Positions 1,414 through 19,077 are shown, numbered from the stretch's first letter. The stretch: DNA of 64,000 bases from Candidatus Latescibacterota bacterium (GCA_965204725.1 OZ242005.1:4096001-4160000); one strand, 5' to 3'. Translations and numbers: made by a program. Notes: a model not told the origin generated them from the sequence alone.

Positions 1414-1428
1414 GGGAGTCCCTTTCTT

Positions 1429-2106
1429 CTATAGGTGTAGTTGGCCGATTGCGTGCGTGGCCGCGTCGCAGTACCAGAGCACGCCCTCGTGGATGGTCAG
1501 CCCGTGGACTTCGGTGGGGGCCTCGACGCGGATGACCTCCCAGATGCGGCCGTCTCGGGGGTCGAGGCGGTTGATGGTGCCGGCCGAGGTGTCGGCGACC
1601 CAAAGGGTGCCGTCGTCGGCCCACGCTAGGCCGTGGACCCGGAGGCCGGGGACGCGGAAGGAATGGACTTCTTCCCAAGTGCTGGCATCCATCACGTGGA
1701 CGAATTGCGAAGGCGGCGAGGCCACGTACACCTGGCCGTCCTTCCACTCTAAGCCGTGGGCCCCGGTGACGCGGCCACTCTGCTGGTCGGCGACCCAAGC
1801 GACGACGCCATTACCGGGCGAATCGAGCTTGGCGATGGTTTGGCCGGTAGTCGGGTCGAGGCGGGCGATTTTAAGCTCAAAGGTCGAGGCGACCCACAGC
1901 GAGCCGCCGCCGAGCGTAATGCCGCTGGAGTGCTCGGTGTCGGTCTGGGCGGCAAAAAGGGTCTCGCCGCTTTCGTAGTCGAATTTATAGACCTTGAGGT
2001 CAACTTGGTCGATACACCAGAGGCCGTCGGGCGCGGCTTGCAGGCCATTGGGCTGGGGACCGGGGCATTTGAAACGCTCTTCAACGCGGGCGACTTGGAT
2101 GGTCAT
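1429..2106 (-). CDS. Beta-propeller protein (Vgb/SMP-30/glutaminyl cyclase-like)
   Basis: Repeated blades PNGL..LW, SGITLGGGSLW, HGLEW, HGLAW..LW, HGLT..LW. Confidence 0.7.
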   Translation of the reverse strand: MTIQVARVEERFKCPGPQPNGLQAAPDGLWCIDQVDLKVYKFDYESGETLFAAQTDTEHSSGITLGGGSLWVASTFELKIARLDPTTGQTIAKLDSPGNGVVAWVADQQSGRVTGAHGLEWKDGQVYVASPPSQFVHVMDASTWEEVHSFRVPGLRVHGLAWADDGTLWVADTSAGTINRLDPRDGRIWEVIRVEAPTEVHGLTIHEGVLWYCDAATHAIGQLHL

Positions 2107-2134
2107 GGTATGCTTTCTTTGCTAGGGGTTGGGA

Positions 2135-2914
2135 TTAGGCCGACCGGCCCATGAGGTAGTTCCAGTTTTGACGGCGGATGGCTCGCTCCTTGTAGTGGTC
2201 GCTCTGGGAGACGCCGAGCGGGTTGGTGAAGTTGAGGATGTTGGTGACGTCCTCGGCCCGGTCGCGCTCGTTCCAGTTGGTGGGCTGGTTGGCCGCGGCT
2301 GGATCGTGGTTCCAAGTGGGGGCGGTGTTGTCCCGCGTACGGCGGAAGAGGAACTTGATCATGTGGCGCTTGTGCGGCGAGCGGTTGGCAGCCGTGCCGT
2401 GCCACAGGTCGTAGTGCGTAAAGGCCACGGTCCCGGCCTTGACCACGAGCGGCACTTGGCCGCGGATGTTGGTGTACGTGGCCATGCGGTCCGTCGGCGC
2501 GTTGCGGAACTGGGTGCCGGGGACGATGATGGTCGGCCCCATGTCGGGCGTGACGTCGGTCGGGTAGTACAGCCCCAAGAAGCGGTTGAGCAGTACATCG
2601 CGGTTGTTGAGGCCGTCTTGGTGCCAGCTCATGTGCGAGGCGTTTGGCTGCTTGCAATGCCAGTGGCGATGCGGCTGCACCTCGTAGTCTGGGCCGAGCA
2701 GGCTGACGAGGGCGCCGGTGACGGCCGGATGGTCGAGCACCTGCCAGAGTTGGGGCACGGCTTCGGTGATGGCGTCGCCGGGGTTGTGGTCTAACGCGTC
2801 GAGCTGGTCGGCGATAGACTCGTTGAGCCCGGCGGGCAACTCCGGCTCAACGAGATGGTAGCCGGAGACGAGGAAACGAGCCACTTCGGCGTCGCTGAGC
2901 AAATGCTTATCCAT
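2135..2914 (-). CDS. Phytanoyl-CoA dioxygenase (PhyH) family Fe(II)/2OG enzyme
   Basis: WHQD, GPTIIVPGTQ, AGTV...LWHG motifs; ATG at 2914 overlaps the upstream gene end. Confidence 0.85.
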   Translation of the reverse strand: MDKHLLSDAEVARFLVSGYHLVEPELPAGLNESIADQLDALDHNPGDAITEAVPQLWQVLDHPAVTGALVSLLGPDYEVQPHRHWHCKQPNASHMSWHQDGLNNRDVLLNRFLGLYYPTDVTPDMGPTIIVPGTQFRNAPTDRMATYTNIRGQVPLVVKAGTVAFTHYDLWHGTAANRSPHKRHMIKFLFRRTRDNTAPTWNHDPAAANQPTNWNERDRAEDVTNILNFTNPLGVSQSDHYKERAIRRQNWNYLMGRSA

Positions 2915-3191
2915 CGGCGATACCCTCCATTTTCTGTAGGATGAACTCATAGCCTATCACGTCCAACTCCCGGTCGTCGAACGGGGCCTGTAGGTGCGGG
3001 AATTGGACGATTTGCCAGCCGTCAACTACGGCGTCGTGTACGGTTTGGTAGGGCCAATCGGGTGCTGACTCAGCGCGGATCTCGGGCACAAAGCCCGCGA
3101 CCGGCTCGATGAGCGTTAGGCCGATGATGGGGGACATGACGCTGGGGGTGCGCGCCTGCAAGTAGAGCAGGCGTTGGCGGGGTGCGTCCAT
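2907..3191 (-). CDS. Small hypothetical protein
   Basis: 94-aa ORF overlapping the PhyH start, with protein-like composition (WPYQTVHDAVVDGWQIVQFP, GYEFILQK). Confidence 0.65.
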   Translation of the reverse strand: MDAPRQRLLYLQARTPSVMSPIIGLTLIEPVAGFVPEIRAESAPDWPYQTVHDAVVDGWQIVQFPHLQAPFDDRELDVIGYEFILQKMEGIADG

Positions 3192-3325
3192 TGGGTTGAA
3201 TCGCTCCTGCAATGCGGGGTGTACAGCGCAGCGTTTAATATAGAAAGGCGGTGCGGCGCGGCCAATGACGCCTCTTGATAGCGGCGGCTGTCTTTCGTAG
3301 CTTGCCCCGCTGAGGAGACGGAAAA

Positions 3326-4314: not shown

Positions 4315-5103
4315 ATGAGACCCAACAAGCTGCGCGAAAAACTCAACGCCGGTGAGCCGACGCTCGCCACCCACATCCACACCACTTGGCCATCGATCGT
4401 TGAGGCCCTAGGGCATACCGGCGCGTACGATTACGTGGAATTTGTCGCCGAGTACGCCCCCTTTGACCTGCACGACTTGGACAACCTCGCCCGAGCCGCC
4501 GAGCTATGGGATTTGGGAACGATGATCAAGGTCGATGCCGAAAACCGCGCTTACGTGGCCCAACGGGCCATCGGGTCGGGCTTTGGCAGCGTCCTCTTTG
4601 CCGACGTACGCGATCCAGACGACGCACGGGCCTGTGTGCGTTGCGTGCGCGCCGACGCGCCCGGGGATGAAGGCACTTATGGGGTCGCCATGCGGCGCTT
4701 CGCCTATATGAGCTATGGCGGCACCCCGGAGTACGTCCAAGCGCTGCGCGACGTGGTCGTAGTTCTGATGATCGAAAAGGAGAGTGCCGTCGCCGACTTG
4801 GAGGCCATGCTCGCGGTGGAAGGGGTCGAGATGGTCCAGTGGGGAGGAGCTGATTACTCCATGAGCGTCGGCAAGGCCGGCCAGCGCGGCGCACCGGAAA
4901 TTGCCGCTGCCGAAGAAAAGGTCTTTAAGACGGCCTTGGAAATGGGCGTCCATCCCCGCGCCGAGATCAACTCAGCCGACGACGCCAAGCGCTATCTCGA
5001 CATGGGGGTCCGGCACTTCTGCGTCGGCACGGATATATCGGTGCTGTATGGGTATTGGCGTGAGCAGGGCGAGGCGATGCGGCGGGCGTTGGAGGGGGAG
5101 TAG
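4315..5103 (+). CDS. HpcH/HpaI aldolase family protein
   Basis: EFVAEY, VVLMIEK, WGGADYSMS motifs. Confidence 0.85.
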   Translation: MRPNKLREKLNAGEPTLATHIHTTWPSIVEALGHTGAYDYVEFVAEYAPFDLHDLDNLARAAELWDLGTMIKVDAENRAYVAQRAIGSGFGSVLFADVRDPDDARACVRCVRADAPGDEGTYGVAMRRFAYMSYGGTPEYVQALRDVVVVLMIEKESAVADLEAMLAVEGVEMVQWGGADYSMSVGKAGQRGAPEIAAAEEKVFKTALEMGVHPRAEINSADDAKRYLDMGVRHFCVGTDISVLYGYWREQGEAMRRALEGE

Positions 5104-5105
5104 CC

Positions 5106-5197
5106 TCACCCCCGCCACACCCTCGTCCGCAGCCCTTCAATCCCTTCGCTCAAGGCGCGGCGGTAGAGCCACAAGTCGCCGCCATAAGCTATGCAGC
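5106..5197 (-). repeat. 92-bp direct repeat copy A: displaced duplicate of the 3' end of the 5977-6759 aldolase gene
   Basis: Matches 5977-6068 at 89/92 positions; all three differences are synonymous in the aldolase frame. Confidence 0.95.
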
Positions 5198-5246
5198 CCG
5201 GTCAAATGTCTCGATTTCTCGGCTCTAAAATTCCTTCCGTTGTCAT

Positions 5247-5654
5247 TTAGCTTTGTCCTGAGTCGTCGGTATCGCGCTCAGTTCGTCGGTACTCGCCTCT
5301 AGTCTCCGGCAGACGCCAAGTACTCTGTGCAACATCTCGCATGACTACCAGTAAACCGGGCCATTGCGCGTCGTCAAATTGCCGTAACGCCTGCATAATG
5401 AGTTGGTGAATTTTGTGGCGGTTCGGTCGTCGCAGGCGTATGATGAGTATCCCGTGATGCGCCACTGTTCTATAGCACGTGAACCCTTTGTCCGTCGTAA
5501 TCAACAGGCGCTCTTCCCGCTGTGCTATCTCCCACAAGGCATCATCTTTCATCCCTTCATCTGGGGTACCACGAATATCGCGGACATCATACCCCATTAT
5601 ATGCAAGGCTTGGACCGTCATGAGGGGGATGTGCTCATCGACCAAGACCTTCAT
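5247..5654 (-). CDS. DUF5615 PIN-like toxin (VapC45-like)
   Basis: MKVLVDEHIP, DDALWEIAQREERLLITTDKGF, HHGILIIR; ATGA overlap with the DUF433 gene. Confidence 0.85.
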   Translation of the reverse strand: MKVLVDEHIPLMTVQALHIMGYDVRDIRGTPDEGMKDDALWEIAQREERLLITTDKGFTCYRTVAHHGILIIRLRRPNRHKIHQLIMQALRQFDDAQWPGLLVVMRDVAQSTWRLPETRGEYRRTERDTDDSGQS

Positions 5655-5887
5655 ACCTCACCCGAGAGCACCTCAAGAGGAGCTATATGCTCTTCAGCCA
5701 GTGAGGCTCCATAGTCGAAGCAAGCGAGGACATCTTCCCATGTTAGAGAAGGATATTCTTGAAGTAGGTCTTCGATGGTATCCCCGTTGGCGAGCATCCG
5801 AAGGATTTGATGCACGGGAAGGCGCGTCCCCTTGATGCAAGCCTGGCCGTGATATACTTGAGGATCAATAGTAATTCGGTTGTCCAT
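5651..5887 (-). CDS. DUF433 antitoxin (VapB45-like)
   Basis: RITIDPQVYHGQACIKGTRLPV...LANGDTIEDLLQEYPSLTWEDV signature; start at ATG 5887. Confidence 0.9.
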   Translation of the reverse strand: MDNRITIDPQVYHGQACIKGTRLPVHQILRMLANGDTIEDLLQEYPSLTWEDVLACFDYGASLAEEHIAPLEVLSGEV

Positions 5888-5976
5888 ACTCTCACTTCCT
5901 GATTTGTGTTGCGTTGACTTAACCCAAACGGATGGCCTATCTGTGGTACGCCCCGGTAAAGAGCGATCTATTGTGA

Positions 5977-6068
5977 TCACCCCCGCCACACCCTCGTCCG
6001 CAGCCCTTCAATCCCCTCGCTCAAGGCGCGGCGATAGAGCCACAAGTCGCCGCCATAGGCTATGCAGC
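5977..6068 (-). repeat. 92-bp direct repeat copy B (in-gene 3' end of the aldolase)
   Basis: Partner of 5106-5197. Confidence 0.95.
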
Positions 6069-6759
6069 GAAAGCCGCGGCGCAGCATCTCCGTTCCCTCC
6101 TCAATGGTATTGACCAAATAGCCCGCGGCCTTGCCGTGGCGCTCGCAAGCAGCGATGACGCGCTCAAGGGCGGCGGTGAACTCGGGGTGGTCAAACTGCC
6201 CGGAAATCCCCAAGAAGTTGCTTAGGTCAAAGCCCCCAATCCACAGCACATCAATCTCTTCTATAGCGGCAATGCGCTCTACGTTTTCGAGCCCGGGGCG
6301 GTTTTCAATCTGAGCGATCAGCAGGCCCTCGGCGTTGGCGTGGTCAATTTTGCCAACGATGGAGCCTTGGGCGAAGTGGTCGTGAGCAATCTGAAAGGCC
6401 GCGCCGCGCTGGCCTAGGGGCGGGTACTTGCCCGACTGCACGATGACCTCGGCCTGCTGGGCGTCGCTAACCATCGGCACCATGACCCCTCGCGCCCCCA
6501 CATCGAGGACGCGGGCGATGAAGTGATATTGGGTCGCCGGCACTCGCACAAAAGGCTCGATGTGGTCGGAGTTGGTGGTGGCAATCAGGTCGCGCACCGT
6601 CTCGACGCTCCAGCCGGTGTGCTCCATGTCGTACATAATGAATTCAGCACCAGCCTCGGCAGAGAGCCGGGCAATGCCCGAAGTACAAAACTCAAGGGTC
6701 ATGGTGCCAATGACAGTGCCGCCCTCTTTGAGGGTGCGCTTGACTTTGTTGGGTTTCAT
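5977..6759 (-). CDS. HpcH/HpaI aldolase family protein (GarL-like)
   Basis: YDMEHT, VRVP, LDVGARGVMVPMV, YPPLGQRG, QIEN, WIGGFDLS; ATGA overlap with the upstream dehydrogenase. Confidence 0.9.
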   Translation of the reverse strand: MKPNKVKRTLKEGGTVIGTMTLEFCTSGIARLSAEAGAEFIMYDMEHTGWSVETVRDLIATTNSDHIEPFVRVPATQYHFIARVLDVGARGVMVPMVSDAQQAEVIVQSGKYPPLGQRGAAFQIAHDHFAQGSIVGKIDHANAEGLLIAQIENRPGLENVERIAAIEEIDVLWIGGFDLSNFLGISGQFDHPEFTAALERVIAACERHGKAAGYLVNTIEEGTEMLRRGFRCIAYGGDLWLYRRALSEGIEGLRTRVWRG

Positions 6760-7799
6760 CCGATAGCTCGATAGCGGTTCAGTTTTTCTTTGAGACGGGG
6801 ATGCTCGGCCACTTGGGGATTGACCGGGTATTCGGGCAAGCGACCAGAGGCGACCGCTAGGATGCTGCGGCAGGCACTGCGGCCAATGAGGCGGAAACAC
6901 TCATCGGTCCAACAAAGCCCGTGCGGAGCGACGATGGTCTGATCGGTGAGGGCCAGCACAGGATCGTCTTGGGATACAGGCTCTGTTTCAAAGACATCGA
7001 GGCCAGCCCCGGCGATCTGTCCCCGTTGGAGGGCGCGAGTGAGGGCCTGCTGATCGACGATGGGGCCGCGGGCTGCGTTGATGAGGTAAGCACTTTCCTT
7101 CATCAGCGAGAGCGCACGCTCGTCAATGAGGTGATGGGTCTCCTCAGTAAGGGCGCAGCAGATACAGACATAATCGGCGCGTTGCAGCAACGAGTCGAGC
7201 TCAACCGGTTCGGCCCCAGCGGCGCGTGCTTGTACCGCATCAACGAAAGGGTCAGCGGCAATGCAGCGAATGCCGAAGGGCTTGGCTAAGGTGCAGATCT
7301 CGCGGCCGATATTGCCTAGGCCGACCAGCCCCAGCGTGCGGTCGGTGACGCCCATGCCCATGTAGTCAAGCCGCTCGTTCCAGCGGCCCTCGCGCACCAA
7401 GCGATCCTTGGCCAGCATCCTGTGACTGAGGGCCAACAGGTACGTCAGAGCCATGACAGCCACAGGCCGGCGCACACCGTCGGGAGTAATCGTCAACAGC
7501 ACACCCCGCTCGTTGCAGGCCGCGACGTCGACGCTGTCGTAGCCAACGCCGAAGCGGGCGACGATCGCCAGCTTGTCTGCTCCCTGCAAGGTCTGGGCAC
7601 TGATTGTCGAGGTGAGGACCAGCAAGCCATCGTAGCTGCGGATCTGGTCGGGGCGCAACTCGGTGGTGTTTTCCGCTAGAAACTCCCACTCGACCTTGGG
7701 GGATTCGTCGAGCAGGTCGAGACCAATGTCGCCAAAGCCGAGGGTGCCGTCGGCCTTGAGAAAGTCGCGGGTGACGCCTATGCGAAAGGTTGCAGCCAT
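6756..7799 (-). CDS. D-isomer-specific 2-hydroxyacid dehydrogenase
   Basis: RFGVGYD, GLVGLGNIG, LINAARGPIVD, GLDVFETEP, APHG. Confidence 0.92.
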   Translation of the reverse strand: MAATFRIGVTRDFLKADGTLGFGDIGLDLLDESPKVEWEFLAENTTELRPDQIRSYDGLLVLTSTISAQTLQGADKLAIVARFGVGYDSVDVAACNERGVLLTITPDGVRRPVAVMALTYLLALSHRMLAKDRLVREGRWNERLDYMGMGVTDRTLGLVGLGNIGREICTLAKPFGIRCIAADPFVDAVQARAAGAEPVELDSLLQRADYVCICCALTEETHHLIDERALSLMKESAYLINAARGPIVDQQALTRALQRGQIAGAGLDVFETEPVSQDDPVLALTDQTIVAPHGLCWTDECFRLIGRSACRSILAVASGRLPEYPVNPQVAEHPRLKEKLNRYRAIG

Positions 7800-8655: not shown

Positions 8656-10428
8656 GTGTCGGGTCTGGATTACGCGCTGATGGTGCTCTATATGCTCTTC
8701 TTGGTGGGGATGGGACTGTACTATAGGAAATTCGCCCAAGAAAGCATGGAAAACTACTTCCTCGGTGGGCGCAAGATGAAGGGGTGGATGAGCGGCACTA
8801 GCTATGCGGTCACCTGCATGAACGCCGACGTAGCACCGGCGTATTGCGGCATGACGGTCATCACCGGGACCTTTATCTGCTGGTGGTATCTGAGTCGCTT
8901 CGGGCTGGCACTGATGATTGGTGGGTTGCTCTTTGCCGCGTGTTGGCGGCGGTTGAAAATTTTTACCTCGCCGGAATTTTACGAACTCCGCTTCGGCGGT
9001 GCGGCCGCGCCGACGATGCGCGCTTGGGTCTCGCTGCGCAGCGCCTTTGTCGCAGTGGTAGCTTGGACCGGAGCCGGGCTTTTGGGGCTGACGAAAGTAT
9101 CCGAGGCCCTCTTGGGCTGGTCGCGCTTTGAGACCTTTTTGCTCGTCATTCCAATCATCTTGGTCTATGTGGTGCTCTCCGGCTATATGGGCGTGGTGAT
9201 GTCGGATTTGATCCAGACCGCAGTCATGATCGCGTCCTCGCTGGTGCTGATGGGCTTGGTCTGGGCCGACTTCGGCGGGCCGACGGGCCTCTACCAAGCG
9301 CTGGTGACCCAGTTCGGGGAAGGGGTCGTTAGCTGGCATCCGCCGATGAGTCACGAACTTTTGGGGGTGGTGGGGATTATCGCCTGGACCATGGGGACCG
9401 CTATAGGCTACGGCGGCGACGTGGCCCCGATGGCCGGAGCGATGGAGGGCCAGCGGCTGCTCTCGTGTCGCAACAGCCGCGAGGCGACGCGGATGTACGT
9501 CTGGACTGAGATCGCGCTTTTCCTAATGCTGGCCGTGCTGACCCTGCCGGCACTGGGAGCGATGGTCAAATGGCCGGGCCTGTACGACGGCAGCATGGAC
9601 AAGGAGCTGGCCTACGGTCTCTTGTTGGGCCACTACCTGCCCTCGGGGCTGCTAGGGCTGGCGTTGGTGGCGATGTTTGCCTCGATCATGTCCACGGTGG
9701 ACTCCAACATGAACTTCGGAGCCCAAGTCTTTATCAACGACGTGTATCGGCGCTTTATCAAGCACGGTGCTGGGATGGGGCACTACATGAGCGTCGGTCG
9801 GGTGGTGATGCTGGCCATCATGGGTCTCTCGCTGGGGGTCGCACTCCAAGCCGAGAATGTCATCGACATCGCGGTCTTCATGCTCGGGCTTTCCTCGGCC
9901 GAACTGACGGCCAACTGGGGCCAGTGGTGGTGGTGGCGCTTCAACGGCGCGGCGCGGCTGGCGGCCTCTTTCGGCGGGCCGCTGGTCTTTCTCTCAAACA
10001 AGTACGTGGTTTTCGCCCATTGGATCGACGCGGGGCAGGATGCGGCCTATATGGTGGTACTCTCGTCAATTGCCGCGACGTGCTTGCTCTGGGTCGCGGT
10101 GGCACTCTGCACCGAGCCGGAGCCCGAGGAAAAGCTCTTGGCCTTCTACAAAGAGGCTAGGCCGATGGGATGGTGGGGGCCGATCGCGCAGAAGGCGGGA
10201 GTTGAGACCGGCGGCGGCAGACCGATCGCACACGGCTTGGGGCTTGCCCTGCTTGGTGCGGTCGCCGTGGGAGGAGGCGTTATCGGCTTTTCGGGGCTTT
10301 ACGTGGGGCGTTGGACTGTGGCGTTGGTCGGGGGGGTGGTCGCACTGGTGCTGGGAGCAGCGTTGCGCGGAGCATACACTCGCTATATGCGCCGAGTCGT
10401 CATTGCGCCGGAGCGAGTCGATTTGTAG
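8656..10428 (+). CDS. Sodium:solute symporter (SSS family)
   Basis: GGAGG RBS with GTG start; YFLGGRKM, PEFYELRFG, QRLLS, ASIMSTVDS; many TM helices. Confidence 0.9.
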   Translation: MSGLDYALMVLYMLFLVGMGLYYRKFAQESMENYFLGGRKMKGWMSGTSYAVTCMNADVAPAYCGMTVITGTFICWWYLSRFGLALMIGGLLFAACWRRLKIFTSPEFYELRFGGAAAPTMRAWVSLRSAFVAVVAWTGAGLLGLTKVSEALLGWSRFETFLLVIPIILVYVVLSGYMGVVMSDLIQTAVMIASSLVLMGLVWADFGGPTGLYQALVTQFGEGVVSWHPPMSHELLGVVGIIAWTMGTAIGYGGDVAPMAGAMEGQRLLSCRNSREATRMYVWTEIALFLMLAVLTLPALGAMVKWPGLYDGSMDKELAYGLLLGHYLPSGLLGLALVAMFASIMSTVDSNMNFGAQVFINDVYRRFIKHGAGMGHYMSVGRVVMLAIMGLSLGVALQAENVIDIAVFMLGLSSAELTANWGQWWWWRFNGAARLAASFGGPLVFLSNKYVVFAHWIDAGQDAAYMVVLSSIAATCLLWVAVALCTEPEPEEKLLAFYKEARPMGWWGPIAQKAGVETGGGRPIAHGLGLALLGAVAVGGGVIGFSGLYVGRWTVALVGGVVALVLGAALRGAYTRYMRRVVIAPERVDL

Positions 10429-10437
10429 CATACATCT

Positions 10438-12867
10438 ATGGCCACCGTCGTCCTCACCGAAAAGCCGAGTGTAGCGCGCGACATTGCCCGCGTCCTCGGC
10501 GCCAGCAAACGCGGCCAAGGCTACGTCGAAGGCAACGGCTACATCGTCACCTCGGCACTAGGGCACCTCGTGCAATTCGCTGAGCCAGACGAGTACGGCC
10601 CGCCTTGGAATGGCCGCTGGTCCTTTACCCAACTGCCCATGATCCCCGAGCAGTGGAAGCTCAAGACGACGCGCTCGACCTCCGACCAATACCAAATCGT
10701 CAAAAAATTGCTCAACAGCCCACAGACGGAGCGCGTCATCTGCGCGACGGACGCCGGGCGCGAGGGCGAGCACATCTTTCGCCTGATCTACGAGCACGCC
10801 CGTTGCAAAAAGCCGGTTGACAGGCTGTGGATTTCGAGCCTGACCGACGAGGCCATTCGGACCGGCTTCCGCGCCTTGCAGGAGGGGGGGGCCTTCGATC
10901 CGCTCGCGGCGGCCGCGCGGGCGCGCAGCCAAGCCGACTGGCTGATGGGCATGAACCTGACCCGCGCCTATACCGTCCACAACAACGCGCTCTGCACCAT
11001 TGGCCGAGTGCAGACGCCGACCTTGTCCATGGTGGTCAAGCGCGATGCGGCGATTGCCAGCTTTGTAAAGGCGTACTTTTACGAGTTGGTGGCGCAGCTA
11101 GCAGAGGGGTTTGCCGCCAAGTACTGCAAGGATGGCCAGACGCGCATTGACTCGAAAGAGGAAGCCGAGCGCCTGCATCGCCAGCTCAGCCCCAACAAGG
11201 TCGGCACCGTCCGCAAAATTGAGCAGAAAGTCAAAAAACACCGGCCACCCGCCCTCTACGACCTCAACAACCTCCAGCGCGACGCCAACCGCTGCTTTGG
11301 CTTTACCGCGGCGCAAACCCTCGAGCGCGCCCAAGCCCTATACGAAACCCACAAGCTCATCACGTACCCCCGCACCGAGAGCCGCCACCTCTCCGAGGAC
11401 ATGGTGCCCAAGTTGCCCGGCATCCTAGAAAAACTAACGCACCCGCAGGCCGGGGCTGCGCTGGCGCGTCTGCGCGGCGGGCACCGGCTCGGCCGGGCCT
11501 ATGTAGATCGCACCAAGCTCACCGATCACCACGCCATTATTCCCACCGGGCAACGGCCCGCCCCCAATCTGGCCCCAGACTTACAGAAGGTGTACGACCT
11601 AATCGTGGCGCGCTTTGTCGGCGTCTTCCTGCCCGACCAAGTGGTTGAGGAGACCACGGTACTCATCGACATCGGCGGTGCCGACTTTGTGGCCAAAGGG
11701 TCTGTCGTCTTAGAGGCGGGGTGGACGGTGGTAGCCATGCGGCCTCCAGACGCGGCAAAGGAGCAGCGACAGGCACTCCCGCCGTTGCAACGAGGTCAGC
11801 AAGTTCGCGTAACGAGCATGGATGTGGTCGAGAAGGAAACCCAGCCGCCGCGACCCTACACCGACGCCACGCTCCTAGCGGCCATGAAAAACGCCGGCCG
11901 CGAAATCGAGGACGACGAATTGGCCGCGGCCATGAAGGAATCCGGGTTGGGCACGCCGGCCACGCGAGCCGAGACCATCGAAAAGCTGATTCGCACCGGC
12001 TACGTCGCCCGCGACCGCAAGGCGATCACCTCAACAGAGAAGGGTAAAGCACTGGTGAGCTTGGTGGCCGAACCGCTGCGTAGCCCGGAGCTGACGGCCG
12101 AATGGGAGCAGCAGCTCAAGGAAGTTGAGGAGGGGCAGCGTCCAGCGGCGAAATTCTACGCAGAGATCGCCGACTTAGTGCGGGCACTGGTGCCCAAAGT
12201 CCAGCAGGGGCCGGCACTCTCGCCCGAGCAAGCGGCCGCGGCACAAGGCAAAAAGAGGGGGCGCGGCAAAGCGTTGGGGCCTTGTCCCAAGTGCAAAGAG
12301 GGCCGAGTAGTAGAAAACGCCAAGGCGTACGGATGCAGTCGCTACCGGGAGGGCTGCGACCTAACAGTCTGGAAGACGGTGGCGCGCAAGCGGCTGACCG
12401 AAAAGCAGGCGCAGTTGTTGATAGCCAAGGGCCGCACCGAAAAGATGCAGGGCTTTACGTCCAAGGCCGGCAAAAAGTTTGCGGCGCGGCTCAAATTCGA
12501 CGATGCGTTCAAGGTCGTCTTTGATTTTGACGATCCGCCGCGGAATGGTGCGGCTAGGTCGGAGGGACGCGAGAGGCCGCCCGAGCCGACCGCCGCCCTC
12601 ACCTGCCCCAAGTGCCGGCAGGGCCAAATCATCGAGGGCCAGCGCGGCTTTGGCTGCAACCGCTATCGCGAGGGGTGCGACTTTGTGGTGTGGAAGGAAA
12701 TGGCCGGTAAGAAGTTGACCGCAAAGCAAATCCACACCTTGATCGCCAAAGGCAAAACCGGCGTGATCAAGGGCTTCAAGAGCAAAAAGGGCCACAAATT
12801 CGACGCGCGGTTGAAGCTCGGGCCGGAGTGCAAGGCCGCGTTTGATTTTCCCGCTGGGGTGCGCTGA
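10438..12867 (+). CDS. topB: DNA topoisomerase III with C-terminal zinc-ribbon repeats
   Basis: EKPSVARDIA, ATDAGREGE, GRVQTPTL, ITYPRT (catalytic Tyr), GLGTPATRA; two CPKC...GC..Y...C repeats. Confidence 0.93.
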   Translation: MATVVLTEKPSVARDIARVLGASKRGQGYVEGNGYIVTSALGHLVQFAEPDEYGPPWNGRWSFTQLPMIPEQWKLKTTRSTSDQYQIVKKLLNSPQTERVICATDAGREGEHIFRLIYEHARCKKPVDRLWISSLTDEAIRTGFRALQEGGAFDPLAAAARARSQADWLMGMNLTRAYTVHNNALCTIGRVQTPTLSMVVKRDAAIASFVKAYFYELVAQLAEGFAAKYCKDGQTRIDSKEEAERLHRQLSPNKVGTVRKIEQKVKKHRPPALYDLNNLQRDANRCFGFTAAQTLERAQALYETHKLITYPRTESRHLSEDMVPKLPGILEKLTHPQAGAALARLRGGHRLGRAYVDRTKLTDHHAIIPTGQRPAPNLAPDLQKVYDLIVARFVGVFLPDQVVEETTVLIDIGGADFVAKGSVVLEAGWTVVAMRPPDAAKEQRQALPPLQRGQQVRVTSMDVVEKETQPPRPYTDATLLAAMKNAGREIEDDELAAAMKESGLGTPATRAETIEKLIRTGYVARDRKAITSTEKGKALVSLVAEPLRSPELTAEWEQQLKEVEEGQRPAAKFYAEIADLVRALVPKVQQGPALSPEQAAAAQGKKRGRGKALGPCPKCKEGRVVENAKAYGCSRYREGCDLTVWKTVARKRLTEKQAQLLIAKGRTEKMQGFTSKAGKKFAARLKFDDAFKVVFDFDDPPRNGAARSEGRERPPEPTAALTCPKCRQGQIIEGQRGFGCNRYREGCDFVVWKEMAGKKLTAKQIHTLIAKGKTGVIKGFKSKKGHKFDARLKLGPECKAAFDFPAGVR

Positions 12868-12868
12868 C

Positions 12869-13447
12869 ATGGCTCTTCAACGCTGTCCGTGGCTCGACCT
12901 CGACAAGCCCGATTACGTCGCGTACCACGACCGCGAGTGGGGAGTCCCCGTTCACGACGACCGCAAGCACTTTGAGTTTCTCACCCTCGAGTCCGCCCAA
13001 GCCGGGCTCAGTTGGTACACCGTCCTCCGCAAGCGCGCCAACTACCGCCAAGCCTTCGCCGAGTTCGACCCTGCCCAAGTCGCTCGCTTTAGCGCGGCCA
13101 AAATCGAGCAGATGCTCCAAGACCCCGGACTGATTCGCAATCGCCGCAAGATCAACGCGGCCGTTGAAAACGCTCGGCACTTCCTCGCCGTGCAGGACGA
13201 ATTCGGCAGCTTCAACGCCTACGTTTGGCGCTTTGTCCGGGGCCAGCCCATGGTCAACGAGTTTCGCACCCTCGCCGACTTACCGGCCACCAGCCGCGAA
13301 TCCGACGCCTTGAGCAAAGACCTCAAGAGCCGCGGCTTCAAATTCATCGGCTCAACCGTCATCTACGCCCACATGCAGGCCACCGGCATGGTCAACGACC
13401 ACGTACTCGGCTGCTTCCGCCGCGCCCAGATCCTCAACGCGGGGTAG
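12869..13447 (+). CDS. tag: DNA-3-methyladenine glycosylase I
   Basis: RCPW, YHDREWGVP, LESAQAGLSW, IRNRRKI, QATGMVNDH. Confidence 0.95.
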   Translation: MALQRCPWLDLDKPDYVAYHDREWGVPVHDDRKHFEFLTLESAQAGLSWYTVLRKRANYRQAFAEFDPAQVARFSAAKIEQMLQDPGLIRNRRKINAAVENARHFLAVQDEFGSFNAYVWRFVRGQPMVNEFRTLADLPATSRESDALSKDLKSRGFKFIGSTVIYAHMQATGMVNDHVLGCFRRAQILNAG

Positions 13448-13470
13448 GCACATCCCACAGGAGAAATCCC

Positions 13471-14271
13471 ATGCTCAGCAGCGAACAATACCAGCACTTT
13501 CAGACCTTTGGCTTCGTCGTCCTGCGCCCGTTTTTCACCGCTGACGAGGTGGCCACCTTGAGCGCGGAGTTTGAAAAGGGCCTCGACCTCGCTTATGCAC
13601 ACCGCCCCTTCGACAGCTCTGAGCGCCATTGGGTGCCGCAAATGGGGCCGAGCACGCCCTTGTACGCCAGCTTGCTAGAGGACGAGCGCTTCTTGGTCAA
13701 TTACCGCGCAGCTCTACGGCGCGGATGCCTTTGCCGTGGGCGTAGATGCCAACCGCTACATCGGCGACACCCGCTGGCACCCCGATCACCGCGTCGATCC
13801 CACCGAAGACTGCTACGGGATCAAGTTTGCCTTCTATCTCGATGCGGTCGGCCCGGATACGGGTGCCCTGCGCCTCGTGCCCGGCTCGCACAAAAACCCG
13901 CTGCACGATGACCTGCGGGCATACATTCAAGGGCAGGGCTTGGAGTTGGCAGACATCCCCTCGTGTGCGCCTACCCCTCCGAGCCGGGCGACGTCGTCGC
14001 CTTTGACGTGCGCTGCTGGCACGCCAGCTTTGGCGGGCGACGGGGACGCCGCATGAGTACCTGCGTGTACTACAAAAACCCCGAGACCCCAGCGCAAGAA
14101 CGAGCCGCCCGCCAACGCGCCCAAAAAAGCCATCAAGCACCCGCGCAATACCACCGCCCCGGCGACCCGCTCATCCACCCCCATTGGATCGCCAATCACT
14201 CGGGCAGCCCCTTGCGCCAACGCTGGATTGAGCGGTTGGACGCCCTCGGATTCCTGCATTCGGCGGCCTGA
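13471..14271 (+). pseudogene. PhyH-family dioxygenase broken by two frameshifts
   Basis: Motifs split over three segments: MLSSEQYQHFQTFGFVVL, then WHPD and GALRLVPGSH, then PGDVVAFDVRCWHAS; apparent +1 near 13693 and +2 (TG slip) near 13965. Confidence 0.85.
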
Positions 14272-14434
14272 GCCTCGGGTTCGTAGGCGAAGCTAAACCA
14301 TTGTCGAATATCAACCTTACAGGTCACAGAAGTGTCGTCAACTTCAGCAAGCCGGTCACGGCAGTCGTCTTCCTCTGCCTCTGGCCCCGCTACGACCGAT
14401 CGAGGGTTCGGGGAGGTGGCCCTACAGATCGTCT

Positions 14435-15796
14435 CTACACTGCTCCTTCAATACCTTCATTGAAGTCGGACGTGGATTGAACCGTTGCACCCTCGCTTAC
14501 CGCATCCACATACGCCGCATCTATTGAAGTTACCCCTTCTTGGGCAGCACGACTGACCACCGAAGCCGCTGTAGTCAACAGAATGCGAGGATGTTGTCTA
14601 TTCTTCAATAGGGCCGCCACCCCTTCTTCAGTGAAGGGCTTAATGGTGCCACGGTCTCCGGGATTGTCCCGATAGTAGTCAAGGTGGGCAACTATGATCT
14701 CTCTGGCTTGGTCCGTACTTGGAAGCGGAAGTTCCACTGAATTGGGATCGCTAGGATCCAATCGGGCAACTCCTGCCAGCCCCGCTTCCCCCCAAGCTGC
14801 AGACAAGCCTACCGAGGCCTGTTGGTGGGTAGTCAGTACGCAAGAAAAAAAGTTGTGTGCTGTGTTTGCATATCCTGGGCGAACAGTGCATAGGGCGAAT
14901 TCCTTTGCGAACTCCACGCGATGTCTACGCGCCATTTGGTCGACAAGGTTCTCTATGTCATCAATAAAGAGATATCCTCCGGCAAAACCAGCGGATTTCA
15001 AGTAGAGGACTATGTCATTGAAAAGAAAATCGCGTGAGAGATCCAATAGCTTTGTGTCACGGGGAACATAGAACGGTTCGAGACTGTTGTCCTTTCTAAA
15101 GGACTTCAGATAGTCTTCAAACCCGCCTATGGCAAGAGCTGATGCTGATTCGGGTCGTATTCCTTCTGTAGTTAGCTGGTTCGTAACCTTTAGGTTCAGT
15201 TCCACAGCGTCTATCCCGTTGGCGTGCAATATGTCGTCAGCCAACAGATTAGCGAGATCTCGGGTTCCGTCTGGTTTTTTCTCAACCTGTTGAACTTCTT
15301 GGTCTGTCAGATGCTGCATTCGTAGAGCAGCCTGCGATGCTTTCAGTACGCCGCTTTTACACACATCGACCAATGCCGACAAAGCCAATTGCTCCATAAA
15401 GCGCCGGTCTACTTGGGAAGGAAAAGACACGTAAACCACCAGCGCAGAAAATTGTCCATCGAATTCCGTCCACCCCCAGTCTTGGTTGATACGCTGCCGA
15501 AAGTAACGGAGCAACGCAGTCTTTCCCATGCCTCGGCTCGACTCCGTGTCTCCCTTGGACCAAAGATAGGCAAGCCGAACTCTATTTTGGAAATCGTTGG
15601 GACGAATCAAAAGCTGCTCAAATTTTTCGATGCTTGGGCGCACCGGTCCCTCAGCATAAATGGTCCCATTACGCCGAGGGTCAGTATTATATGGGTCAGA
15701 GATAGCTACATTAGGAAATGGCAAGTCTTTCAGACCAAGTTTTTTGTAGGGAGAAGTCGTTTGTTGCAGGCCTTTCTTAGGTACTCTCAGCATCAT
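14435..15796 (-). CDS. AAA+ P-loop ATPase (BrxD/Cdc6/ExeA-like), putative defence component
   Basis: N-terminal YKKLGLKDLPF, Walker A GMGKT, Walker B YLFIDDIE, VLTT, KPFTEEGV, HPRILL; lower GC; TAATG overlap with upstream gene. Confidence 0.75.
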   Translation of the reverse strand: MMLRVPKKGLQQTTSPYKKLGLKDLPFPNVAISDPYNTDPRRNGTIYAEGPVRPSIEKFEQLLIRPNDFQNRVRLAYLWSKGDTESSRGMGKTALLRYFRQRINQDWGWTEFDGQFSALVVYVSFPSQVDRRFMEQLALSALVDVCKSGVLKASQAALRMQHLTDQEVQQVEKKPDGTRDLANLLADDILHANGIDAVELNLKVTNQLTTEGIRPESASALAIGGFEDYLKSFRKDNSLEPFYVPRDTKLLDLSRDFLFNDIVLYLKSAGFAGGYLFIDDIENLVDQMARRHRVEFAKEFALCTVRPGYANTAHNFFSCVLTTHQQASVGLSAAWGEAGLAGVARLDPSDPNSVELPLPSTDQAREIIVAHLDYYRDNPGDRGTIKPFTEEGVAALLKNRQHPRILLTTAASVVSRAAQEGVTSIDAAYVDAVSEGATVQSTSDFNEGIEGAV

Positions 15797-16887
15797 TATG
15801 CCTTCCTGATAAGGTTATAGATCTGGGTGGAACCCCGGTCACGCACCAATGGCTTTCGCCGACCGGTGATACCCTCGTATTGTAGGCCGACCGTTAAGGG
15901 GCGAGGGTCCAAGTCAAGGATATGGTTGAGGCCCTCGTCGAACGCCGCTTCTGGTATCTTCAAATATTCGCTGACCCTATCCCGGACCTCAGATAAGTCA
16001 TAGTACCCGGCGATCGGAGTCAAGCTCTCAAACACCTCGTAAATGGCCTTAAGGAGTTTGTCGAGTACTTTAAGATCAGCTATGTCCGGTTCGCAGAAAT
16101 AGATGTTAAAGGATTCGTCCGAGTTAAGACGAATATCTAGCGGGACATGCCAATTATTCGGAGGAAAATTCACCATACAGGGAGTATATGTCTTTAAGAA
16201 CTCACAACCTTCTTGGTTATGCTTCATTTGGTTTAATAATCGGAGACTTACCAACCGATCACACATCGCTCTGAACATGGGAACGCCTATACGCATTTCG
16301 GGAACCGCCTTTAGCAGAATACGATGACGTAAGGCATCCTCCATTTTCTTAGGGTTACTACCATTCAGTGTCGATAATACTTGGTCGGCCTGCTTAGCTG
16401 CTTCTTCACCAAATGTAGGAACAAGTAAACCAGTGATGTAATCCCTGTTATCAAATCTGTCCGCATTTACTACTGGACGCCAAATAGCCTCCAATTCTAA
16501 GTGCTTCTTAACTACCAACCGGAGATTATCATAAGTCCGCAAATGCTCCGTAGCCATAACACGCCGCAGTTTTTGGAATTGACGATTATCAAGAAGGGAT
16601 AAAACTGCCCTGCCCTTATCCGTCAGTTCATACGCCCCTCTCTTGACGGACTTGGCGAGTTGGAGATGTACCAATTCAGGGCAAATTTTTTCACCCACGG
16701 TCTCAAATGTACCCCTCGGCTCCGGCAACATTAGCCGCAAAGCTTTGTCACTGACATATTTGCGGACGCTCTTAGCAATTGTGTCTGTCTGCTCCTCTCG
16801 GCGAGCACTAGAAGGCAAACCTGCCAATACGCGCAGTCCGATATAGTGATAGCCAACGTCGGTTACGTTGTAGCTAGTTATATTCAC
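15796..16887 (-). CDS. Hypothetical protein with probable multiple winged-helix domains
   Basis: wHTH-like segments LVHLQLA..GAYELTDKGR, MCDRLVSLRLL, LSEVRDRVSEYLKIPEAAFDEGL; GTGA overlap with the nuclease gene. Confidence 0.65.
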   Translation of the reverse strand: MNITSYNVTDVGYHYIGLRVLAGLPSSARREEQTDTIAKSVRKYVSDKALRLMLPEPRGTFETVGEKICPELVHLQLAKSVKRGAYELTDKGRAVLSLLDNRQFQKLRRVMATEHLRTYDNLRLVVKKHLELEAIWRPVVNADRFDNRDYITGLLVPTFGEEAAKQADQVLSTLNGSNPKKMEDALRHRILLKAVPEMRIGVPMFRAMCDRLVSLRLLNQMKHNQEGCEFLKTYTPCMVNFPPNNWHVPLDIRLNSDESFNIYFCEPDIADLKVLDKLLKAIYEVFESLTPIAGYYDLSEVRDRVSEYLKIPEAAFDEGLNHILDLDPRPLTVGLQYEGITGRRKPLVRDRGSTQIYNLIRKA

Positions 16888-17663
16888 TGCATCGCCTCCC
16901 GGGCACTGGCTAAAAGCCAATTGCATTCCGCGTTAAGCTGCCGAAACGAATGGCTGATTACCTGAGATTCAGATTCAGCGACCACCCTCAACACAATAGT
17001 ATTTTCAGAACGATAGCCGAATCTACTGCTGATCCAATTATCCATTAACTTCAGCCATACATTGTTAAGCTCGGCACAAAAATCTTGAAACCGGTCGTGG
17101 AATTCTTCTGAAACTTGGAGACGACCCCGACGCAGTTCCACGTTAATCCTCTTTGCATTATCAACGAGTATGGGAACGGGTCTCAAACTAGGACTTACCG
17201 GGTGGATGCCAAGCCCAAGACACGCAGCCAAGCCGTTGATGTCGAACGCCGCGGTAGCCATGAATACAGGGCACAACTCCTTCAATAACAAATCCGGATT
17301 GAGGGCGAGATAGTCTAATATCTTGGCAAAGAAGACTATTACGTCGTTTTTCGCCGGAGGCCCCTGCCAGTTCTTCAGTTCCATTATAGCAGTGACATCC
17401 GGGTGTTTGGCCACGATGTCGATTTCGTGCAGAACACCGGATGCAGTAGACATCTCAGAACCGAGACGCATTTCTCGCTCCTGAGAAATCTCCCAACTAC
17501 TCAAGCTAGTAATACAACCGGTCCGAAAATTACGTTCAAATCCCTGATCGGGCAGGTTGTCACGAGCTGTGTGCTGCCATTCCTCGTTGACAAACCGATA
17601 GCAATGTTTGAGGAAGTCAACTGCTGCATTCGGCAGTTCATCTTCCACTCGGATGCTAACCAT
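16884..17663 (-). CDS. Mrr-like PD-(D/E)XK endonuclease
   Basis: QGFE ... SGVLHEIDIV ... MELKNW ... VIVFFAKILD; true start may be 17718 (see findings). Confidence 0.7.
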   Translation of the reverse strand: MVSIRVEDELPNAAVDFLKHCYRFVNEEWQHTARDNLPDQGFERNFRTGCITSLSSWEISQEREMRLGSEMSTASGVLHEIDIVAKHPDVTAIMELKNWQGPPAKNDVIVFFAKILDYLALNPDLLLKELCPVFMATAAFDINGLAACLGLGIHPVSPSLRPVPILVDNAKRINVELRRGRLQVSEEFHDRFQDFCAELNNVWLKLMDNWISSRFGYRSENTIVLRVVAESESQVISHSFRQLNAECNWLLASAREAMQ

Positions 17664-17793
17664 TTTTCCTCATCTCGTCGAGGTCCGTAATGCGTAGATC
17701 GTATAGCTGCTCATCCATGTCTCCTTGTATCTGAGTGTTTTTGGCTGTGCCAACTCGTGCTATGTGAAGAATGTACTTAGCTCCTACGATGTG

Positions 17794-18000
17794 TCAAGTC
17801 ATACCTTCTACATCTAACCCCACCGCCTTCCGCAACTCCTCCGGCTCCGGTACTTGGGCCGCCGCTCCAAAGCTCAGCACCTAACTCTTAATCTCATAGA
17901 ATTTCCCAGTTCGCAGCCGCTTTAGTAGCAAAAATCGCCCGTCCTCCTCCAACCACCGCCCCGCGGTCTGTTTGTAGGCCGCGCCCAATGGTTGGGCCAT
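17794..18000 (-). pseudogene. WYL/WCX-domain regulator C-terminal remnant with nonsense codon
   Basis: EEDGRFLLLKRLRTGKFYEIKS*VLSFGAAAQVPEPEELRKAV matches the WVLSFG..VLEPEELR..V end of PafC/YafY-type proteins; TAG at 17881-17883 replaces TGG. Confidence 0.75.
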
Positions 18001-18090
18001 GTCGTGCTTCCTCTGTGGTGAAATTGCAAAAAGGGGTCCAATTGAATAGAATAAGATGTGCGCTTTTTTCCCCTCACCAAGGAGCTTCTC

Positions 18091-19077
18091 ATGCACGTCG
18101 GCACTCAGCAGTTTAATACATCGGACGAAGACCTCGAATATCTGGCTCGTCACGGGGTCTTCAACAAAAACGAAAATTTCATCGCGTTCCACCGCGAATA
18201 CGGTTGGGACGTCGAAGAATTGGTCGCCAAGAAGGAGAAGTGCGCTCGCTTCGGCATCGACCTAGAGATGGTCGCCTTGCCCATGGCCCAGTTCAACGTC
18301 AACGGCGGAGGCGTCCCCAACTTTATGATGGGCAACTACGAAGAGGGCGATAAGGAGATTGCGCTGGTCGTCAACATGGTGCGGCAGGCGGCCGAAGCCG
18401 GCATCCCAGCCATCAAATACTACCTCTGCGCCCTTGAAAACCAGCGCACCGAAAGTACGCCCCCCGGCCGCGGCGGGTCCATCTACAGCACTTGGGACCT
18501 CGAAAAGGCCGACGCAGATACGCCTCGCTACGACCAACCCGTCACCGCCGAGGAAAACTGGCGTCGCATCACGTACTTCTTGGAAAGGGTCATCCCGGTG
18601 GCCACCGAGTGTAAGGTTCGCATGGCCTGCCATCCCTGCGACCCTTGGCTGCCGCCCGGCTTTAAGGGCATCGATCGCGTGATGGGGGGCTTTGACGGCT
18701 TCAAGCAGTTTATCGAGATCTGCCCTAGCCCCTACCACGGCGTCAATCTCTGCTTGGGCTGCATGGCCGAAAGCGTCGAAGACCCGCTCAACGAGGTCCC
18801 CGAAATCATCCGCTACTTAGGCTCGCGCAACAAAATTTTCCTCTGCCACTTTCGCAACATCGTCGGCAAGCGCAACAAGTTCCAAGAGGTCTGGCCCGAC
18901 GAGGGGGTGATGAACATGCACCGCAACATGCAGGCCCTCAAAGAAGTGGGCTACCAGCACATGTGCGTCCCGGATCACGCGCCCGGGCACAAAGACCCCC
19001 ATAGTATGCGCCAAGCCTTCGCCTACGAGTTCGGCTACATCCAAGCCATGATCCAAGCGGTGATGGACGAGAATTGA
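18091..19077 (+). CDS. uxuA: Mannonate dehydratase family protein
   Basis: AAGGAG RBS; YFLERVIPVA, MACHPCDP, LCLGC, HFRN, VPDHAP. Confidence 0.8.
   Translation: MHVGTQQFNTSDEDLEYLARHGVFNKNENFIAFHREYGWDVEELVAKKEKCARFGIDLEMVALPMAQFNVNGGGVPNFMMGNYEEGDKEIALVVNMVRQAAEAGIPAIKYYLCALENQRTESTPPGRGGSIYSTWDLEKADADTPRYDQPVTAEENWRRITYFLERVIPVATECKVRMACHPCDPWLPPGFKGIDRVMGGFDGFKQFIEICPSPYHGVNLCLGCMAESVEDPLNEVPEIIRYLGSRNKIFLCHFRNIVGKRNKFQEVWPDEGVMNMHRNMQALKEVGYQHMCVPDHAPGHKDPHSMRQAFAYEFGYIQAMIQAVMDEN

Follow-up and report, generated by a model that had tools for sequence, protein, structure and literature searches.

A mobile three-gene module of a putative nuclease, a predicted triple winged-helix protein and an AAA+ ATPase in Candidatus Latescibacterota: a candidate anti-invader system

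The islet and its insertion site

The stretch of DNA analysed here, referred to as the window, consists of 64,000 nucleotides (nt) from Candidatus Latescibacterota bacterium (GCA_965204725.1 OZ242005.1:4096001-4160000), and all coordinates are those of the whole window. It contains an islet of low guanine plus cytosine (GC) content which carries three genes, here named g1, g2 and g3 and together called the trio or the cassette. Our analysis confirmed that the islet is real as it had first been described from the sequence alone, and we regard the trio as a credible candidate for a role in defence. The features of the islet are:

14284-18045 (ends approximate), no strand: low-GC islet of about 3.76 kb, missing from the same site in two genomes of the genus (G001 and G005)
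16884-17663, minus strand: g1, 259 amino acids, putative PD-(D/E)XK-type nuclease (from the listing of open reading frames and the raw sequence)
15796-16887, minus strand: g2, 363 amino acids, predicted triple winged-helix protein, GTG start, GGGAGG at 16895-16900
14435-15796, minus strand: g3, 453 amino acids, predicted AAA+ ATPase of the ORC/Cdc6 clade
17770-17797, minus strand: promoter-like site TTGACA-16 nt-TACATT, about 105 nt upstream of g1

The trio spans 14435-17663 on the minus strand and its genes are translationally coupled. The stop codon of g1 and the GTG start of g2 (16887-16885) overlap as GTGA, with GGGAGG located 7 nt upstream, and g2 and g3 overlap in turn as TAATG. The longest open reading frame (ORF) of g2 offers an alternative in-frame ATG at 16926; the GTG is most likely the true start, because the homologues begin at this position and because of the GGGAGG in front of it. 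The GC content is 0.43-0.51 over 14750-17999 as compared to 0.61-0.66 on both sides. No other sizeable ORF was found inside the islet by ORF listing, and Pfam revealed no methyltransferase domain in g1, g2 or g3. The sequence-only reading, which had described a minus-strand islet of lower GC with three genes joined by GTGA and TAATG overlaps and devoid of a methyltransferase, was therefore accurate in all these respects.

Promoter-like sites are no more numerous in the region than expected from shuffled sequence, and only the position of the one at 17770-17797 is suggestive. Contigs from RNA libraries (three runs of one study, about 92% alike) span 14435-17777 including both gene junctions. 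DNA carry-over is possible in such contigs and a contig across several genes does not prove a single transcript; the coverage is compatible with transcription of the trio and is not counted as evidence here.

The islet is a foreign, horizontally transferred insertion, which is concluded from empty sites in related genomes, its patchy occurrence in the phylum, the low GC content of the cassette and the presence of carriers across phyla. In a DNA search of 30 related genomes, G001 and G005 showed the left flank (to 14271/14279) followed by the right flank (from 18067), with 46-47 unaligned bases between them, and reading by eye placed the common sequence up to about 14283 on the left and again from about 18045 on the right. 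Both genomes thus exhibit an empty site in which the flanks are joined by a short intergenic spacer, and the islet can therefore be delimited to roughly 14284-18045. The g3 ATPase is present in only 2 of the 168 genomes of the phylum, namely the window's own genome and G146, and in one of the 30 other genomes of the genus. G146 corresponds to locus L001 of the survey below (same contig coordinates of the g3 match); there the islet occupies the same site and is 96% identical, the flanks being 92% identical. The window's genome holds a single copy of the trio. In addition, the entire stretch was found on a contig from a sponge metagenome (run X3), the differences over 4301 bases amounting to 55 changed letters and 5 gaps; runs X13-X20, which held less than one fifth of the words, were excluded from use for habitat.

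At the left end of the islet, 155 bases (14280-14434) lie between a PhyH-like gene and the g3 stop codon, and these are not common to L001. In the relative represented by the RNA libraries they are replaced by 30 other letters: the RNA contigs provide no cover for 14288-14431 and join across it with these letters, this relative simply being without the stretch. Judged by eye, these letters are similar to the spacer at the empty site of G001, so that in the RNA-library relative the imported DNA appears to stop almost exactly with the stop codon of g3.

The trio in other genomes

A scan of 185,579 species genomes, with one genome per species, yielded 31 loci, which is a lower bound. According to tblastn, 27 of these loci, covering about eight phyla, have g1, g2 and g3 in the same order, so that the three genes do indeed co-occur in other genomes. 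Of the other four loci, three (L005, L014 and L031) run into contig ends, and L018 holds a truncated copy beside a resolvase. The loci are distributed as follows:

Chloroflexota: 14 loci, 8 of them in Dehalococcoidia
Verrucomicrobiota: 3 loci
Acidobacteriota: 3 loci
Planctomycetota: 3 loci
Entotheonella: 2 loci
Binatia: 2 loci
Pseudomonadota: 2 loci
Latescibacterota: 1 locus
Unclassified: 1 locus

Among the carriers the ATPase is 55-96% identical. At least 481 relatives of it exist among 90% clusters, and the 120 relatives listed are at least 63% identical, every name given by their sources being "hypothetical protein". The trio is found almost only in uncultured lineages such as Dehalococcoidia, Entotheonella, Binatia, Latescibacterota and those of sponge metagenomes.

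A fourth conserved gene was not found. When 459 ORFs from flanks and cassettes were clustered, no further cluster occurred in more than 5 loci, and those in up to 5 loci represent housekeeping families; likewise, none of the genes within 8 kb of the cassette is a conserved partner in the 31 loci. It follows that the trio cannot be regarded as a fragment of some larger system. Its derivation from a known larger system in particular, which the sequence-only reading had named as a way in which it could fail, was ruled out on the same ground. The cassette has a lower GC content than its left flank in all 24 loci and than its right flank in 21 of 23.

The trio is under strong purifying selection. 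Among the comparisons of gene pairs, 11 had a usable dS and gave ratios of nonsynonymous to synonymous substitution rates (dN/dS) of 0.05-0.22, six further ones being saturated, and the window copy carries every invariant residue of the g1, g2 and g3 families. Several copies elsewhere have been inactivated: g3 of L001 contains a GAA-to-TAA nonsense change at codon 199, g3 of L027 is split, and L007 and L019 harbour insertion sequence (IS) transposases inside the cassette. Such inactivations are often seen in defence genes. The trio is thus a real, intact, selected and horizontally mobile unit.

Defence-type genes stand beside the trio in a minority of loci only (L003, L010 and L029). In L003, a metagenome-assembled genome of Chloroflexota, an 832-amino-acid protein with a TOTE conflict system AEP primase and a ResIII helicase (5074-7572, minus strand) is encoded about 460 bp downstream of the trio. 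L010 carries near the trio a 1418-amino-acid Eco57I/MmeI-like restriction-modification (RM) enzyme with DUF6577 (11148-15404, minus strand), and in L029 a PLD-helicase (1171 amino acids) and a ResIII protein (882 amino acids) are located on either side of the cassette (643-3291 and 8983-12498). Large ORFs of 1562, 1150 and 998 amino acids without a Pfam match at E 1e-5 adjoin the trio in L002 (10177-14865), L011 (10070-13522) and L017 (2387-5383), respectively.

Predicted proteins and the likely role of the trio

The codons of the motifs in g1 and g3 are located as follows:

17373-17420, minus strand: D82...E95-L-K97 motif of g1, read directly from the sequence
15518-15535, minus strand: Walker A motif of g3, R88-G-M-G-K-T93, invariant columns
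14957-14974, minus strand: Walker B motif of g3, YLFIDD at 275-280 (Y275-D280), invariant columns

In g1, residues D82, E95 and K97 are invariant in all 25 close homologues and in all 60 sequences after 46 distant relatives had been added, the latter stemming from a profile search of 1.84 billion representatives with 141 matches. The protein consists of a conserved N-terminal region, a catalytic core at about residues 60-125 and a C-terminal region which is probably helical; the last 100 residues gave weak matches, probably due to chance, to helical and coiled-coil proteins. Among the 77 trio proteins scanned, which include 25 of g1, matches below the Pfam cut-offs were obtained for UPF0102 (3 proteins), NERD (2) and DUF2161 (1). 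Likewise below the cut-offs, NERD also matched 2 of the 46 distant g1 relatives, and Mrr_cat matched the close relative P0135 (E 0.009, 16.5 bits versus a cut-off of 21). In the language-model Atlas, clusters of Mrr_cat and of NERD came up as leads (0.90). Judging from its sequence, g1 is predicted to be a PD-(D/E)XK-type nuclease and presumably an active one. An ASCH domain was not detected by Pfam in the 25 close g1 proteins (E <=0.05), the 46 distant ones (E <=0.01) or 8 longer relatives (E <=1), and at the level of sequence we lean towards its absence.

For g2, the AlphaFold2 model (predicted local distance difference test, pLDDT, 90) shows three winged helices: residues 9-102, 103-267 and 268-363 each match winged helix-turn-helix (wHTH) proteins, and the only multi-domain structural match is the recognition domain of FokI. 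Mrr_N was detected below its cut-off in 4 of 26 g2 proteins (best E 3.3e-5; window copy 24.2 bits versus a cut-off of 29.5), whereas sequence and profile searches of the PDB gave only chance-level rows. According to the model, g2 is a triple winged-helix DNA-binding protein of FokI-like build. A complex prediction for g1 and g2 resulted in a score of 0.00 and a mark of 0.32, which says nothing for or against a complex.

In g3, many further columns are invariant besides the two Walker motifs. AAA_16 was found in 26 of 26 and an ORC-CDC6-like domain in 21 of 26 members, all under the Pfam cut-offs, and the PDB sequence and profile searches returned only chance-level rows for this protein as well. 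The AlphaFold2 model is of moderate quality (pLDDT 71, with residues 29-68 and the P-loop below 50); the N-terminal 70 residues are conserved and modelled with low confidence, and a helical insert of about 145 amino acids is placed between strand 2 and Walker B. The best Foldseek match was Cdc6 (E 1.2e-3), which is ordinary for an AAA+ core, and ORC/Cdc6 proteins score the same as TnsC against g3, within 1 Z unit. In the Atlas, clusters carrying PF10923 (BrxC_BrxD) were nearest to g3 (0.96-0.97), a lead only, and PF10923 itself gave no match in the 26 ATPases at E <=0.05. Beyond the ATPase, Pfam recognised no sensor repeat or effector domain. On the model and its motifs, g3 is an AAA+ ATPase of the ORC/Cdc6/TnsC/MuB/BrxC-like type with intact Walker motifs.

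The nuclease motif, the three winged-helix segments and the Walker motifs noted in the sequence-only reading have therefore all been recovered. Its description of g1 as Mrr-like was not supported, the matches being below threshold and hhalign of A1 and A2 against EcoKMrr, a weak test of one sequence versus a profile, giving probabilities of 0.4% and 1.8%.

The combination of a FokI-like triple wHTH protein, an ORC/TnsC-like ATPase and the invariant D...ExK of g1 suggests that the trio encodes a DNA-targeting machine. A complex of nuclease and ATPase guided by the multi-wHTH protein would be the most economical reading, in which both the formation of the complex and its targeting to DNA are presumed. 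On balance we consider the islet a self-contained, horizontally transferred three-gene module whose most likely role is innate DNA restriction against invaders, without a methylase of its own. A defence role is favoured because of the unit character of the trio, its foreign origin, its kept function, the losses, some defence-type neighbours and an independent prediction in the available text of PMC10853773 (Nucleic Acids Res 2024).

This prediction, made there in one sentence and without a name, concerns counter-invader operons of Orc/Cdc6, a restriction endonuclease (REase) joined to ASCH, and a triple-wHTH protein resembling DndG. As far as the available text allows, the likeness to the trio is considerable in that both are mobile operons without a modification gene which combine an ATPase of the ORC/Cdc6 clade and a putative REase-type protein with a triple wHTH protein of the FokI/DndG/SspB kind. 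Both the ATPase gene and, in the same operon, a triple winged-helix protein resembling those of DndG, SspB and FokI are predicted in the trio, and a REase fold may be present in g1, to judge from D82/E95/K97 and from the sub-threshold matches to NERD, UPF0102, DUF2161 and Mrr_cat. The operons of that paper probably differ in having REase-ASCH; no ASCH match was obtained here and g1 comprises only 259 amino acids. The comparison is one of described parts, not of protein families. Going by the text available, the trio is not wholly undescribed and constitutes a variant of an architecture which has appeared in the literature before, so that the term "undescribed" in the sequence-only reading was too strong. 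The combination, which it did not recognise as a named system, gave no match to its proteins in the window with PADLOC v2.0.0 or NCBIfam 20.0 either. Literature searches did not turn up an experimental study of such a trio, which is no proof that none exists.

Several observations weigh against a role in defence or against parts of the proposed machine. The assignment of g1 as a nuclease is based on its motif and the sub-threshold family matches, and PDB sequence and profile searches with g1 returned no nuclease, only chance-level rows. Most flanks consist of housekeeping genes, including luciferase-like monooxygenases, ABC transporters, a coenzyme A (CoA) transferase, isocitrate dehydrogenase and EngA, so that no enrichment of the cassette in defence islands is apparent, a judgement made without an enrichment statistic. 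The Pfam tally of 145 flanking ORFs points in the same direction with small counts: DDE transposase 4, and resolvase, Uma2, PIN, SNF2 and AAA_15 2 each. With PADLOC, none of the 77 family members gave anything at E <0.005. The trio proteins, having a mean column identity of 58-73%, are unusually conserved for a defence sensor. Finally, ATPase searches found no copy of the trio in phage, plasmid and IMG/VR collections.

If the trio acts in restriction, g2 would bind the target DNA through its FokI-recognition-like domains, g3 would load or oligomerise on the g2-bound DNA in an ATP-dependent manner and act as a switch, and g1 would then cut the target DNA. The leading option for the distinction of self from non-self would be a mark or structure of the invader DNA, similar to Type IV systems; alternatively, activation might be tightly gated by ATP. 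Since the cassette contains no modification gene and yet occurs in very different hosts, a feature of the invader DNA or strict gating is likelier than a classical RM pair.

It is also possible, and we offer this tentatively, that the trio represents a new family of modification-independent restriction systems. A FokI-like triple-wHTH reader would load an ORC/TnsC-like AAA+ ATPase and thereby license a free-standing nuclease, so that the logic of replication initiators and of transposition target selectors would be reused for immunity; residues 1-70 of the ATPase, conserved and disordered, would serve in partner docking, and the family would be spreading in uncultured soil and sponge-associated bacteria.

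Known restriction systems differ from the trio in several points. The likeness of g2 to the recognition domain D1-D3 of the Type IIS enzyme FokI comes with an identity of 8-10% and modest scores, which is no proof of common descent; moreover, the trio encodes its presumed reader and cutter by separate genes, possesses an AAA+ ATPase in addition and is devoid of a cognate methylase. Type II/IIS RM systems have a linked cognate methyltransferase, and none is present in the islet or conserved beside the cassette in the 31 loci; the Eco57I-type enzyme near the trio of L010 is unrelated and occurs in this one locus. Mrr also combines a wHTH with a PD-(D/E)XK domain without a methylase, and the sub-threshold matches of Mrr_N to g2 and of Mrr_cat to a g1 relative belong here. 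In contrast to Mrr, in which Mrr_N and Mrr_cat reside in one polypeptide, the trio has the parts as separate genes and in the opposite order, with three wHTH domains as opposed to a single one and with an ATPase in the operon, and shows no similarity to Mrr at the family level.

The trio might instead be the restriction arm of a two-part system, the modification genes of which (a methylase, or backbone or base modification) would protect the self DNA from an unlinked place in the genome. In the text available, PMC10853773 groups the triple-wHTH module of FokI with DndG and SspB of the phosphorothioate systems, describes the restriction and modification modules of Dnd systems as commonly decoupled, and presents SspC-SspB as a pair made up of an ORC-clade ATPase and a triple-wHTH protein, an arrangement like that of g3 and g2. 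Nevertheless we consider this explanation unlikely: the cassette passes from phylum to phylum by itself and shows no conserved partner within 8 kb, a new host would presumably be harmed by a restriction arm that came without the modification genes belonging to it, the window's genome (94% complete) shows no DndB match, and no PADLOC model of Dnd or Ssp matches any of the 77 members.

BREX, the ATPases of which (BrxC/PglY and BrxD) are AAA+ proteins of the ORC-Cdc6 type, is excluded for the trio because PglZ and PglX are missing. Besides these two, BrxA, BrxB, BrxL and BrxHI were found neither in nor near the cassette (Pfam and PADLOC, 31 loci), and at E <=0.05 g3 gives no PF10923 match, in spite of the Atlas lead to this family. 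According to the available text of PMC12839542, BrxD is a stand-alone ORC-Cdc6 AAA+ ATPase paired with the helicase BrxHI, whereas the presumed partners of g3 are a putative nuclease and a wHTH protein.

An abortive-infection or addiction-type module, in which the ATPase would sense a cue of infection and the nuclease would degrade DNA indiscriminately including that of the host, appears quite unlikely. Such a module would be hard to reconcile with g2, a dedicated and highly conserved FokI-like three-domain reader that points to specific DNA binding, and with a g3 that is devoid of a recognisable sensor repeat or effector domain.

A TnsA-like nuclease, a TnsC/MuB-like ATPase and a wHTH protein binding ends or targets could also serve to mobilise a so far unrecognised element of the transposon-like or homing type, which would spread for its own sake; the closest known systems in this respect are TnsA-TnsC of Tn7 and CRISPR-associated transposons (CAST) and MuB of Mu. 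Such a mobility function of the trio is improbable. Pfam shows no DDE/rve domain and no serine or tyrosine recombinase in the trio, which thus has no TnsB-type transposase, and TniQ and TnsD are missing too. Furthermore, the window contains no terminal inverted repeats or target duplications beyond short chance matches, visual inspection of the flanks of 24 loci revealed no conserved non-coding ends, the window's genome harbours a single copy, and g3 is no closer to TnsC than to ORC/Cdc6.

Finally, a cellular DNA transaction such as repair, replication control or gene regulation would be in line with the strong purifying selection, the mostly housekeeping flanks and the common use of ORC/DnaA-type ATPases and wHTH proteins in replication and regulation, but is very improbable given the extremely patchy distribution (2 of 168 phylum genomes; at least 31 loci in the species genomes scanned), the foreign composition, the close relatives without the trio at the same site and the repeated inactivation of copies.

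Should the trio confer protection from phages or plasmids, as the restriction reading would have it, a compact (3.3 kb) defence system would have been missed by the catalogues tested. It would then offer a clean case of an ORC/Cdc6-type ATPase that controls a separate nuclease via a FokI-like reader without a methylase, which bears on the question of how self DNA is spared. The presence of the trio in uncultured lineages is moreover an example of what escapes defence surveys that focus on cultured bacteria.

Remnants and genes at the borders of the islet

Two short remnants are located upstream of g1:

17821-17943, minus strand: remnant of a WYL/WCX C-terminus, 41 residues with an in-frame TAG (tblastn)
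17961-18066, minus strand: scrap resembling an unrelated native gene in its 5' end and upstream region (L043 2811-2916, 87% identity over 106 nt)

The first remnant, to which the second is joined, is 76% identical to residues 271-309 of an intact WYL paralogue of 325 amino acids elsewhere in the genome (L044), the in-frame TAG standing at the position of a tryptophan in this paralogue, and 88 bp of it (17846-17933) are deleted in L001. Segments 75-88% identical to 17818-17920 and 17961-18117 occur at several places in most genomes of the same genus; those of 17818-17920 are the C-termini of WYL paralogues, and those of 17961-18117 correspond to the 5' end or promoter region of the unrelated gene (L043); 17961-18117 may be a repeated promoter-bearing segment.

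As a WYL homologue is missing from all 31 related trio loci and only a 41-residue scrap with a stop codon is left here, the remnant is taken to be local host debris, that is, a scrap of a genus-native paralogue and no part of the conserved system. The sequence-only reading was hence correct in recognising the C-terminus of a WYL protein upstream of the trio, but the regulatory link it drew from this to WYL-headed defence operons does not hold. Such operons (BrxR/CapW) possess an intact wHTH-WYL-WCX regulator, and WYL as regulator of the trio was ruled out by the truncated state of the scrap, by the native paralogue as its best match and by the 31 loci. A regulator remnant beside an islet can thus be host debris instead of a component of an imported system.

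On the left side, the PhyH-like gene (13225-14271, plus strand), which lies between the gene tag and the islet, is split over three frames (ORFs 13225-13911, 13736-14056 and 13963-14271), and represents either a pseudogene or the outcome of assembly indels. In G005 it is a single ORF of 243 amino acids with a weak PhyH match, and in several genomes of the same genus it is missing at this site. To the right of the islet, Pfam identifies a UxuA/xylose-isomerase-like gene (18058-19077, plus strand). Its start is more likely the ATG at 18091 (M-H-V-G-T-Q-Q...) than the GTG at 18058, because the similarity to G001 and G005 sets in immediately upstream of this ATG.

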